From the NCBI GenBank assembly GCA_951406725.2, contig OX597815.1:30132001-30196000 (forward strand): a stretch of 64,000 bases of DNA, in the 5' to 3' direction. Positions 4,121 to 49,625 of this stretch are shown here, piece after piece (position 1 is the stretch's first letter; the number at the start of each line of letters is the position of its first letter). The translations under genes and the position numbers were made by a program. A model generated the notes under the pieces. That model saw only the letters and a list, made by a program, of their open reading frames with translations. It did no database searches and was not told where the DNA came from. The stretch is from Octopus vulgaris (taxonomy: Eukaryota).

Positions 4121-4786
4121 TCATATACATACATATATGAACACACAGAGACACAGACACACAGACAGACGAACACACACACGCACACACTTATATATGC
4201 AATGCATACTCACTCAAGTATATATACATGTTTATGACCTTGAAACCTATACATAGGCATGGCATGTGCATGATAGTCGCTAAATTTGCAAGAGTGAAAC
4301 CCGTTATATACAAATATATTAAATACTGCGCATGCATTGAATTCTATGTTAAGGACGTGTTCTCTGTTTTATGTATCTTAAAATACTATTTTTTTAATTG
4401 TGCGCATATCTATCTATCTATCTATCTATCTGTCTATCTATCTATCTATCTATCTATCTATCTATCTATCTATCTATCTATCTATCTATCTATCTATCTA
4501 TCTATCTATCTATCTATCTATCTATCTATCTATCTATCTATCTATCTATCTATCTATCTATTGATCTATCTATCTAGATAAATATTTTTCTCACAATATA
4601 CCTATGCATATATATATATATATATATATATATATATATATATATATATATATATATATATATTTAATAATATATATATATATAAATATTTAATCCAAAC
4701 AAGAAAGCACAAAAAAACACAACAACGCGAGGACGTGGAACAAATATAGTATTATTGCACGCTCAGGAAAGAAGGAAATAAGGAAG

Positions 4787-4821
4787 GTTTAACGTTTCCA
4801 GCGGAGCTCTTCGTCGGAAAC
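4787..4821 (-). ncRNA. Mutated hammerhead motif within repeat ~4688-4896
   Basis: Reverse complement reads GTTT-CCGACGA-A-GAGC-tcc-GCTG-GAAAC-GTT-AAAC, with one core and one stem II substitution. The repeat is flanked on both sides by (TA)n. Confidence 0.6.
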
Positions 4822-7800
4822 ATAGGAGAAGGCAAGATCCAGAGAAGGGAAGACAGAAGAAAAAAAAATTCGCCAACGGTACGAGGTCACATTTTGAATA
4901 TATATATATATATATATATATATATATATATATATATATAGCTTTTATGTATTTAGCATGTGTTTGTATATATGTATATATGTATATATGTTTGTATGTG
5001 TAAATATGCATATATATATATATATTTTCTCTATGTATATATATATATATATATATATATATGTCTGTATTTATTATATGTATATGTGCGTGTGTCTTTG
5101 TGTTTGTGTGAAATTCAGAGATAAATTTAACGTCCTTTAGTGGAATTTCGAAAGGGATTGTGTCAACAACAACGTTTATTGTCGACAACCAATATAACTT
5201 GAGCTTGTTAGATGTAGCTTCAGCCAAATCTTGCGAGTATATCTTCATTAAGATATTCCCTACATCAGCCTAAATTGTAAATCTAAAATCGTTGGTTTGC
5301 TTTCGAAGAGTGATTTTATTAATGCATTATAAGCGATAGACGTTATTGAAAAAATATGAGTGTAGCAGGATCTTTTGTTAACGAACGTTGTTGAAATGAT
5401 ACGTCGGTGTTCCACTAAAAGCGCATTCATCTTATGATAAGTGCTATATGTTGTTATAACTGCCATAGATGGAAATGTTAACATAAAATGCTTTGTTTCT
5501 GTCTGTTTTTATTCATCGTCTCTTCACTGTTACGTTGCTATGATATTTCATAAACATGGGAGTATTGAAACTAAAAGCATAATAGTAAAAATTAGCAGCT
5601 CTGAGTTCAATTGAAAGGGGCAGAAAAAGACAATAAATACCAATTATTATGATAATTAGTATAGTAGCGGCGGAAATGACATTTGTTGGTGTTTTTCTGA
5701 TAATGGAACTACGCAATTTGTCATCGAGCTGAGAGGAGGAAATAAAGCAAAAGTTTCAATGTTTATTTCAATGGAATCAGTTCAGTCTGAAGAACAATGA
5801 TTTAGCTGGCAAAGCCTGTATGTTTATCCATGCTGAACAAAAATAGTTGTCAATGCTTTCAAAAAAAAACAAAAAAAGAACAAAACAAAAAATAAAGAAT
5901 AAAAGACACAACACAAATAAAGTACACAAAAATCTTTGCTGTAACTCTGAAGTAGAATAAAACATGATATAATTTTAGAAGAAAGATGATCTTTTATAGA
6001 AAACTTAGGAATATAGGTTTCATATTTCATATGTAGTTCATCCTGTGTTTTTACCGTATTTTTTTACACAAAACAATGCTGATAGTTTCGATACCATATC
6101 TCTGATAGTTTCTATACTATTATATTTCTATAATATTTATGCTTTTTTTTTTCTGAATGAATTATTGTTTTCATGCAAGGAATCATGTCAAATCTGACTA
6201 ACAGGAATCTATTGTTAGATAGAGTTGTAGACTTGTATGAATAACGTCACCTTAAGTGTGACATACTATCATTTGGCTAGAGGGGGGCTAATAAATTCTC
6301 ATAATGTTATTAAATATAGTTGCTGTTTCGGACTGTTACATCTTATACCAGCTACTTAGATCCTCGCCACCCACATCGATGACTGATAAAGTAAATATTT
6401 TCGTACAAATACATGCAGCTTGAGTTATTTATCTGAGTGGAAACGTCTGTCGTGAAGTTCAACTTAGCGGTATTACACCAGTGCATTAGCTTCTGTCGGG
6501 TGACTAAACTAGTTCTCCTACACACTTCAATGTATGTATGTATGTATGTATGTATGTATGTATGTATGTATGTATGTATGTATGTATGTATGTATGTATA
6601 TATGTATGTATGTATGTATGTATGCATGCATGTATGTTTGCATGCATGTATGTATGTTTGTATGTATGTATGTATGTATGTATGTATGTATGTATTTATG
6701 TATGTATGTATGTATGTATGTATGTATGTATGTATGTATGTATGTATGCGTGGCTGTGTGGTAAGAAGCTTGCTTCCTAACCACATGGTTTCAGGTTCAG
6801 TCCTGCTACGTGGCATCTTGGGCAAGTGTTTTTCCACTATAGACTTATGAGTGGATTTGGTTGATGGAAATTGAAAGAAACCCGCCATGTATAAGAAAAT
6901 GTATGTACGTATGTATGTACGTATGTATGTATGTATGTATGTATGTATGTATGTATGTATGTATGTATGTATGTATGTATGTATGTATGTATATCTAAGT
7001 CTTTATTTGTTCCCCTCCCCACTACTTGAAAACCGGTGTTGGTCTGTATGCATCCCCGTAACTAGCAGTCGGGAAAGTATCAGGCTTACAAAATTAAGTA
7101 CTGGGGCCGATTCATTCGACTAAAAATTCAAGGTTGTATAGTATTGTTGTTTTGGAGGGCGATAAGCCATAGTTGTAAAGGGCTGTTAAGTACCTATAAT
7201 TTTGGCGGGTCTGGTTATAATTTATTGAGAAATATCAGCTTTATTGTCCCAAGAAAAAAAATGATATTTTGTTCTACAATGAAAACATACTCAAGACTAA
7301 ATTAGAAATAATTTCGTTACAGCTAAGGCTGTATTTTCCTTTATTATATACGCACGTACATTTAAAGTAAGGAACGCAGACAAGCTAATGTAGTGAATAT
7401 TTTAGAAATAGATGTTAGAATGTTATTTTCAACTGAAAGTCCCAGAGTATGTTGGTCATACAGAGGGTGAAATCAATTGGTATTGAAATATACATTACTT
7501 ATATATATATATATATATATATATATATATATATATATATATATGTATGTATGTATATGTATGTATGTTTGTATGTATATCTAAGTCTGTGCTTGTTCCC
7601 CTCACCACTGCTTGAAAACCGGTGTTGGTCTGTATGCATCCCCGTAACTAGTGGTCGGGAGAAGTACCAGGCTTACAAAAATAAGTACTGGGATTGCAAA
7701 GGTAAGCCCGTTTCTGATATGTTCATTGCATTGCACGTGTGTATCTTTATTGTGCGTTTAGGGTGGTTTTAGAGCCGTGTCCCTATATATATGTATGTAT

Positions 7801-48170: not shown

Positions 48171-49358
48171 ACAATAGTAATTTAAAACGTCTACTGCAAC
48201 TTTGACTTCGGAAAAATTCTGTCAAATTGCTGTAGAATAGGGTTCCACTTCATGAGACTTACTTTCACTCAGAAATGTAGTTGGAATAGCTGATGGATTC
48301 TAGGTCTCATCGTTGCACCTAAGTCCGTGTCAGTTGCACCTGAGATACTTGATGATTAAAGGTGTATGGAGAAAGGGCGCTGGATGTGATGTGTCTCTAT
48401 ATCTAACAGTCTCGGGTGTATTATAATCACAGTTTAACTGTATTTCACACGCCATCTATCTTGCAATATATTACAACAACATATCTCACATTTTACCCAT
48501 TAACATGATATATTAGGTGCATTTAAAAATTCTTCTTTCCAATGTTATACATAATATCTCCAGTATAGCTCAACACTATATCCAGTAATCTAATGCAATA
48601 TATCAGACCTAAGTATCCATAACCACCCACCACATAGTACAATAACATAATATATCAGCGTATTTAACAAGCCAGGCTTTCAATTTATTCAATCCTATTA
48701 TGAGTGCATTTCGCCATTTAATGTAAGTTCCTCTAATTTAATGCATCTGCCTATCTTTAGATTTAGTAAATCAATACATTTGACATTGACAAAGTAGCTA
48801 TCCTTAATGAATTTAAACACGACGTTCCAACGGCTCAAACACAAATAAACCTTTTCCCAACTTATTGAAATGAAAGAAATGTTAGGTAGGCTTTCCGTTT
48901 ACTATCAATACTTCAGTTTCCTTTTCCACCTCACAATCACTCTCTCAAACACGCAGACGTGCGCGCACACATATATGGGTGCATGTACAAACACAAGCTC
49001 ATTCACACGCCTCGTACACACATACTCACACAGACAAAATCTCAAATACATCTATGCATATTTTGCATAACTTTGCAACACGATCGTAACCAAACATGAG
49101 CATGTCTACTCTTTTTCACAAAGTTACGGGGACGTAAATACAGCAAGATCGGTTGTCTAGTGATCGTGGGGACAAACATAGACACCCAAATATATATATA
49201 TATATATATATATATATATATATATATATATATATATATATATATATATATATATATGTAGTTAATCAAAACATGAATAAAGAGAAAACGCAACAACGCG
49301 AGGACGTGGAACAAGTATAGTGTTATTGGACGCACGGAAAAGGAAAGAAAGAAGGATG

Positions 49359-49393
49359 ATTTAACGTTTCGAGCGGAGCTCTTCGTCAGAAAC
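49359..49393 (-). ncRNA. Minimal hammerhead ribozyme motif within repeat 49260-49460
   Basis: Reverse complement reads GTTT-CTGACGA-A-GAGC-tcc-GCTC-GAAAC-GTT-AAAT. Confidence 0.7.
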
Positions 49394-49625
49394 ATAGAAA
49401 AAGAAAAGGTCCAAGGAAGAAAAGACAGAGAAAGAAAATTGCCAACGATACATACGCGGACTGGCTTCTTCCAGCCCTCCGTCTATTAAATCCACTCACA
49501 AGACTGGTCGGCACGAGGCTATAGCAGAAGTCACTTGCCGAGGGTGCCATGCATTGAACCCGGAACTCTATGGTTGGGAAGTAGGCTTCTTACCAGACAG
49601 CCACTCCTGCGTCTATAAATATATA

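Follow-up and report, generated by a model that had tools for sequence, protein, structure and literature searches.

Six short repeats dispersed over a 64,000-nucleotide window of the Octopus vulgaris genome (contig OX597815.1, positions 30,132,001 to 30,196,000; coordinates below are those of the window) each carry a minimal hammerhead ribozyme motif or the remains of one, and they fall into two families, here called A and B. We consider it probable that both are remnants of Penelope-like elements (PLEs), namely pseudo-long terminal repeats (pseudo-LTRs) from the 3′ ends of two PLE families, probably Neptune-type, that lack an open reading frame (ORF) and were inserted in TA microsatellites. 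An initial annotation had proposed a high-copy, ORF-less ribozyme retroelement, a solo pseudo-LTR or retrozyme-like, mobilised by a Penelope-type reverse transcriptase (RT). The class it named is supported by the match to a published consensus, by a nearest motif that lies behind Neptune-type ORF ends, by the (TA)n targets and by contig numbers, but its retrozyme-like option finds little support, the copies all being single with a helix I of 4–5 bp.

All six motifs lie where that annotation had placed them, the one at 31451–31485 on the forward strand and the other five on the reverse strand, and a profile built from the six copies found no seventh in the window (next match, E 5.6). Three are intact minimal type I motifs, those of copies A1 (31451), A2 (49359) and B1 (32861), and three are damaged (4787, 28408 and 36790). 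The A1 motif (31451–31485, forward) reads GUUU in stem I, followed by the core CUGACGA, an extra A, stem II GAGC/GCUC with a UCC loop, and GAAAC-GUU; a copy-specific 2-nt insertion leaves its stem I at 3 bp, and cleavage is predicted after 31481. Its counterpart in A2 (49359–49393, reverse; predicted cleavage after 49363) has a 4-bp stem I whose closing pair is G-U, while B1 (32860–32897, reverse; predicted cleavage after 32865) combines a 5-bp stem I, UCUUU/AAAGA, with a GUAG-looped stem II, the ACGU palindrome and a U at core position 6 (U6). Among the damaged motifs, all on the reverse strand, A3 (4787–4821) carries U4>C and C11.1>G and retains GUUU/AAAC; B2 (28408–28444) has G16.2>A and has lost the palindrome, with a 5-bp stem I (CCUUU/AAAGG) and 26 nt identical to B1, U6 included; and B3 (36790–36817) is a remnant from which loop II and the 3′ strand of stem II have been deleted. 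The palindrome ACGU replaces helix III in five of the six copies, helix I is 3–5 bp long, and the traits of minimal PLE hammerheads are present: an extra nucleotide after A9, a G10.1-C11.1 pair and a helix II. CUGANGA and GAAA..UH are found in two of the three family A copies of the window, and they are the majority state in contigs of four public runs placed on a 231-bp stretch at A1 (X1 and X6, labelled organism A; X5, organism B; X7, organism C).

BLAST and nhmmer group the copies into family A (about 205 bp; three copies, about 84% alike) and family B (about 170–190 bp; three copies). When A2 is compared with family B, 27–28 of 34 motif positions are identical, as against 44% of the 5′ flank and 46–59% of the 3′ flank; a profile of the A 3′ flank gives a faint in-register match to B2 (E 0.069) and B1 (E 3.5), and one of the A 5′ flank gives no match to family B. 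Judged by these alignments, A and B are two families that share little beyond the motif and are at most distantly related. The compensatory stem I difference that had been described, GUUU/AAAC versus CUUU/AAAG, stands, but the word "subfamilies" overstated the kinship. In the window, AAAC is seen in only one of three A copies (A3), A1 having AAAA through its insertion and A2 having AAAU; because loose contig ends behind 31484 start with C in all four runs, we take GUUU/AAAC to be the family A state. CUUU/AAAG is found in two of three B copies (B1 and B2), between which a second compensatory pair, the fifth of stem I, changes from U-A to C-G. The covariation claimed at the outset is thus present as one or two events, without a significant covariation signal. 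In nine hand-picked rows that include four look-alike loci (described below), both sides change in four of five stem I pairs and stem II is 97% paired, which we count as support and not as a significance test because the rows are related and selected.

A structural descriptor consisting of the core, a stem II of at least 3 bp, a palindromic helix III and a stem I of at least 3 bp, with position 6 left free, matched three times in the window (A1, A2 and B1) and in none of 200 dinucleotide shuffles done block by block. An ordinary repeat that resembles a hammerhead by chance would fit the results obtained with Rfam: A1 and B1 had no match to its hammerhead models even at E 10, and a scan of the window gave no hammerhead among the 150 of 218 matches listed, only microsatellite-driven microRNA matches below gathering score. 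Cleavage, too, is a prediction. However, the shuffles yielded nothing, and the motif, with the paired stem I changes just described, persists in two families whose flanks have diverged, as well as at unrelated loci, so that chance seems to us an extremely improbable explanation.

Family A agrees with the consensus given for the minimal hammerheads of metazoan PLEs, which is U-rich and reads NNN CUGANGAH G..C GAAAN palindrome NUH (Cervera and De la Pena, PMC4209133, supplement Fig. S3). Our motifs share with the hammerheads of metazoan PLE pseudo-LTRs, as presented there, the type I topology, CUGANGA with an extra nucleotide before stem II, the G10.1-C11.1 pair, a GAAAC-GUH palindrome in place of helix III, a helix I of 3–5 bp, a U-rich 5′ flank, and the occurrence of several families per genome, mostly as single copies; they differ in a short stem II (4 bp, with a loop of 3–4 nt) and in having no ORF attached in the window, and the alignment of that supplement is without a cephalopod. 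The same work described the motifs in 2014 as mostly single copies spread through animal genomes that cleave little, if at all, in vitro (PMC4209133).

A link to Neptune-type elements comes from look-alike loci. An exact family pattern had no matches in metagenome and viral contigs, and a relaxed pattern derived from the window motif had none in viral contigs; the latter, run over 3 of 64 parts of the metagenome collection, returned 121 loci (L001–L121), from which about 3,500 are estimated. The motif most frequent among them is that given for a Neptune element of Acropora digitifera (PMC4209133 Table S1, Fig. S3), which equals family A in the core, the extra A, the GCUC 3′ strand of stem II and GAAACGU. 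The Acropora motif and the look-alikes lie at distances from the ORF end and the element end similar to ours, whereas their stem I (GCU/AGC), loop (UAAC), mostly GGGC strand and flanks are unlike those of family A. One of these loci, L011, is a 5′-truncated PLE with an inverted terminal piece, and its GIY-YIG end with a CX4CxxC linker lies 10 nt before the motif. A fragment of it retrieved 320 proteins (120 listed), the 25 longest of which were used against the loci, 41 of the 121 being shorter than 630 bases. Neptune-type proteins (DKG motif, CX4CxxC linker, GIY-YIG) matched 13 of the 121 loci at E<=1e-5; twelve of these matches are upstream on the motif's strand, and eleven end 10–79 nt before C3. 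Pfam, applied to 70 of 112 upstream fragments, gave one weak GIY-YIG match. Since our copies begin 66–80 nt before C3, and those of family A end 102–109 nt after the cut site, they would by analogy span what in the look-alike PLEs is the interval from ORF end to 3′ terminus.

Two longer ORFs at these loci proved not to belong to PLEs: the 604-aa ORF upstream of the motif in L016 is a host CHY zinc-finger gene, and the 861-aa ORF in L011 is a RING/NHL gene. Separately, nine of the 121 loci (L001, L021, L023, L055, L058, L059, L063, L112 and L113) hold two back-to-back hammerheads on opposite strands within about 70 bp, an arrangement not seen in the window, and L016 holds a palindromic unit of about 200 bp, made of inverted PLE ends, that looks like a miniature inverted-repeat transposable element.

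The ends of the copies point in the same direction. A1 (31389–31591, forward) is flanked by (TA)n at 31365–31388 and 31592–31641; A3 (4688–4897, reverse) lies between two (TA)n tracts and has the same 5′ start as A1; and A2 (49258–49460, reverse) has its 3′ end at (TA)n and a 5′ end about 10 nt short, abutting another repeat. In family B, B1 (32800–32965, reverse) has its 3′ end at (TA)n (32770–32798), and the ends of B2 (28320–28505, reverse; not at (TA)n) and of the decayed, B-like B3 (36715–36871, reverse) are approximate. Contact with (TA)n is thus made by four of six 3′ ends and two of six 5′ ends, chance proximity being 1.7% of non-TA positions, and loose contig ends pass from the A terminus into (TA)n in three of the four runs (X1, X5 and X7). 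Because the target is (TA)n, target duplication is unreadable; no terminal inverted repeats were found in the copies. A (TA)n insertion bias has been reported for several PLE clades (PMC8557442), and PLEs make up 6.83% of the O. vulgaris assembly, in 190 families (PMC13282606 supplement). In Octopus, Hydra-1_Obim and the Naiad PLEs share the (TA)n preference (Craig et al. 2021, PMC8557442), and Hydra-1_Obim of O. bimaculoides has a 3′ hammerhead; however, its motif, as given there, has a 7-bp stem II, a 4-bp helix III and another sequence, which rules it out as the parent, the Naiads are described as without canonical motifs, and our short motifs were not found in the supplement of that paper that was searched.

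Three further features touch the copies. The 3′ end of B1 contains a perfect 12-bp inverted repeat with a 2-nt spacer (32811–32836) that is not in B2 and resembles a fold-back during insertion. High-copy repeats resembling short interspersed nuclear elements (SINEs) adjoin four of the six copies in the same (TA)n neighbourhoods (28180–28320, 31215–31365, 36590–36715 and 49460–49600). Finally, a hydrophobic frame of 45 codons crosses family A (49258–49395, reverse) from an ATG over stem I and is not common to B; no longer protein related to it turned up at E<=10, which is weak evidence, and the frame is probably a result of the T/C-rich sequence.

The sole RT ORF of the window (40169–43177, reverse; 1002 aa, uninterrupted, with RVT_1, zf-RVT and C-terminal REL-type motifs) was considered as a PLE and rejected, its best solved relatives being R2 proteins. 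It belongs to a long interspersed nuclear element (LINE) of the R2 superfamily that looks young and that we take to be of the Dong/R4 type. A SINE-like repeat moved by such a non-PLE enzyme, with the hammerhead as an inherited passenger, would be in keeping with this being the only RT ORF of the window, with its own insertion in a microsatellite, and with the hammerhead-bearing SINE-like repeats known in schistosomes (PMC6765202). Yet the 3′ end of the LINE enters (TAA)n and by eye has no tail in common with A or B, self-BLAST of A1 and B1 gave no match at the LINE, no tRNA gene was called in the window, and in type and spacing the motif agrees with PLE ends; we therefore hold this origin to be quite improbable.

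A closer relative of the reading as pseudo-LTR remnants is that the copies are monomers of non-LTR retrozymes, whose tandem arrays would give rise to transcripts that are cleaved from one hammerhead to the next, closed into circles and returned to the genome by a PLE RT. Animal retrozymes of this kind are, like our copies, ORF-less, PLE-related and equipped with a type I hammerhead, with lengths of 200–400 bp (Cervera and De la Pena 2020, PMC7229834; Li et al. 2026, bioRxiv 10.64898/2026.07.22.740005), and in Xenopus monomers derived from pseudo-LTRs are described as evenly spread (Li et al. 2026). The absence of an ORF, the length of about 200 bp and the common 5′ start of A1 and A3 would suit them, as would back-going joints in the contigs: one from 31484 to 31404, with seven letters between, has a depth of 3,346 in X1 (some 65-fold the median of eight long contigs), and others run from 31561 to 31400 (depth 63) and from 31563 to 31375 (depth 39). 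However, joints of whole units head to tail are single low-depth contigs, all six window copies are single and none is in tandem, and the motif sits in mid-element, with fixed ends at (TA)n and not at a unit junction. Retrozymes, moreover, are defined by tandem units and circular RNAs, whereas our copies are single, and retrozyme motifs are mostly canonical, with a 6-bp helix I and loop contacts, in the accounts of PMC7229834 and PMC4209133, as against 4–5 bp here. We thus regard retrozyme monomers as unlikely. The joint from 31484 to 31404, of which one row also occurs in X6, could represent either a tandem hammerhead unit of about 100 nt or an inversion.

The number of contigs placed at A1 was 14,577, 9,565 and 7,889 in the DNA runs X1, X5 and X7, respectively, and 3,515 in X6, a run only guessed to be RNA. 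Thousands of contigs per run mark family A as highly repeated, and this in several related organisms. The very large copy number suspected from the six copies is borne out to that extent, but depth gives no figure for it: the ratio of peak summed depth to long-contig depth, 3,000–94,000 in X1 and 5,000–156,000 in X7, is not usable as a copy number. Among the 40 of 59 variant rows listed, tabulated in three runs, the changes within the motif are CpG transitions (at C7, G8, the loop, C11.1, G12 and G16.2), together with U17>G at 1–8% and changes at 31484–31485 beside the insertion of A1. The core CpG positions change at 2.5–5% (G8), 1.7–10% (G12) and 2–17% (G16.2), and flank CpGs at 0.2–13%; because catalytic CpG positions decay like those of the flanks, most copies look dead. 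B1 and B2, by comparison, are identical at 35 of 36 motif positions and 74 of 99 flank positions (one-sided p 0.0015, with limits set after viewing the data). Such a pattern is compatible with constrained source elements whose copies decay neutrally once inserted. Ribozymes domesticated by the host to process its transcripts could be imagined, three of six motifs being intact and a high copy number offering many chances of co-option, but the other three are damaged, the catalytic CpG positions decay as just stated, the monomer has no stable helix III, and no host exon was identified nearby, all of which makes domestication very improbable.

Several observations weigh against our interpretation of A and B as PLE remnants. 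No PLE protein was found in the window, where the best tblastn match to 120 Neptune-type proteins had E 0.028 and the best match of a profile (25 proteins) E 1.2, and Pfam, applied to 209 of 243 listed window fragments (about 30 microsatellite-rich, duplicated or LINE-antisense fragments were omitted) and to four ORFs, found none either; nor does any loose end lead into an ORF among the 24 of 661 contig-end rows listed. The copies attached to RT/GIY-YIG ORFs that the initial annotation had proposed to look for are accordingly lacking in the window, although look-alike loci elsewhere do hold Neptune-type ORF ends upstream, and we do not class the window copies as autonomous PLEs. The Neptune link itself is a motif of 27 nt selected by a pattern made from our own motif, and the look-alike flanks are not homologous to ours. 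That A1 and A3 start at the same 5′ point is easier to reconcile with a short, defined element than with truncation at random. The family A motif is not significantly better kept than its flanks, whether judged from common polymorphic sites (0 of 34 versus 5 of 102 in the flanks, p 0.33, in the variant rows listed) or pairwise (p 0.05–0.17), and family B departs from the CUGANGA consensus through U6. Finally, in nearest-neighbour folding the active fold is not the preferred one: in whole A copies the probability is 0.10–0.23 for stem II and at most 0.01 for stem I, and the dimer fold has –1.9 to –14.7 kcal/mol against –22.5 to –26.8 kcal/mol for the best co-fold, in nearest-neighbour energies that leave tertiary contacts outside the model. 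Stem I reaches a probability of about 0.4 in B1, and whole A1 folds at z –2.35 into a structure unrelated to the hammerhead. As modelled, these unfavourable energies would be in line with weak or assisted cleavage.

If A and B are pseudo-LTR remnants, one could envision an RT/GIY-YIG protein, encoded elsewhere, that nicks AT-rich DNA, as PLE biology suggests, with reverse transcription beginning at a point about 100 nt downstream from the hammerhead; an early stop on a full-length RNA, or the copying of a short non-autonomous RNA, would then leave an insert of about 200 bp. Helix III may form in the source transcript when the ACGU palindromes of two motifs pair, and the dimer would cut weakly after GUU (family A) or GUA (family B), probably helped by the protein of the element. 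A copy standing alone in the genome would be unable to cut and would decay neutrally, structure being kept only in the source lineage. A precedent is the anole PLE Poseidon PAc (Frangieh et al. 2024, PMC11167929), whose protein is reported to nick AT-rich DNA and whose reverse transcription starts 111–118 nt into the ORF, i.e., about 85–92 nt past the cut site at nt 26; its hammerhead cuts only with the protein and is dispensable for insertion in vitro. PAc of Anolis resembles our elements in its pseudo-LTR hammerhead (about 90 nt upstream of the RT start) and its AT-rich targets; unlike them, it is autonomous and tandem, its ORF begins inside the motif, and its cleavage has been demonstrated (PMC11167929).

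Position 6 sets family B apart. In the formula of the initial annotation, "(A/U)" masks a conserved core residue, A6, which reads U in family B: the core is CUGUUGA in B1 and B2 and CUGCCGA in B3, none of which agrees with CUGANGA. Both well-kept B copies have U6 with both stems preserved (32865–32892 and 28412–28439, reverse). U6 is absent from the 56 motifs of PMC4209133 Fig. S3, and changes of A6 are reported to reduce activity, A6C to less than 0.1 per minute (PMC3088659). As far as its letters tell, family B resembles the minimal hammerheads of PLEs but is no member of their consensus. We found no description of a natural A6U hammerhead, or of these families, in the literature searched; Lunse et al. 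2017, said to be a catalogue of PLE-associated hammerhead variants, as well as Repbase and Dfam were outside the search, so absence from print is not established.

A more speculative thought, which we rate as rather unlikely, is that the short units are mobile themselves, as a fixed-end, TA-targeting, non-autonomous parasite of PLEs. Family A would then have a tandem form of about 100 nt that brings two hammerheads into dimer range, a miniature retrozyme, and family B would have fixed U6 with its stems kept, either as a new natural core variant or as a fold whose retained function is to be bound by the PLE protein and not to catalyse. Minimal hammerheads standing alone and dispersed over animal genomes have been on record since 2014 (PMC4209133), and hammerhead PLEs that insert in (TA)n are listed for a cephalopod (PMC8557442 supplement), so our finding adds two families to a class known since then to be abundant in animals. 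In the single PLE studied in this respect, the hammerhead is dispensable for in vitro insertion; two high-copy families, of which A has a canonical core and B has U6 with intact stems, are test material for asking whether selection acts on catalysis or on the fold alone.

The window is otherwise microsatellite-rich animal DNA with a G+C content of 28–46%. It includes a 2.28-kb tandem duplication (14647–17026 and 16931–19305) of 99.5% identity, which is recent or an assembly artefact, and one of about 225 bp (46259–46705) with 95% identity, within a 193-codon open frame without a Pfam match. Remnants of Tc1/mariner-type transposases (HTH_48, DUF4817) lie on the reverse strand at 47788–48018, 50108–50443 and 62946–63458.

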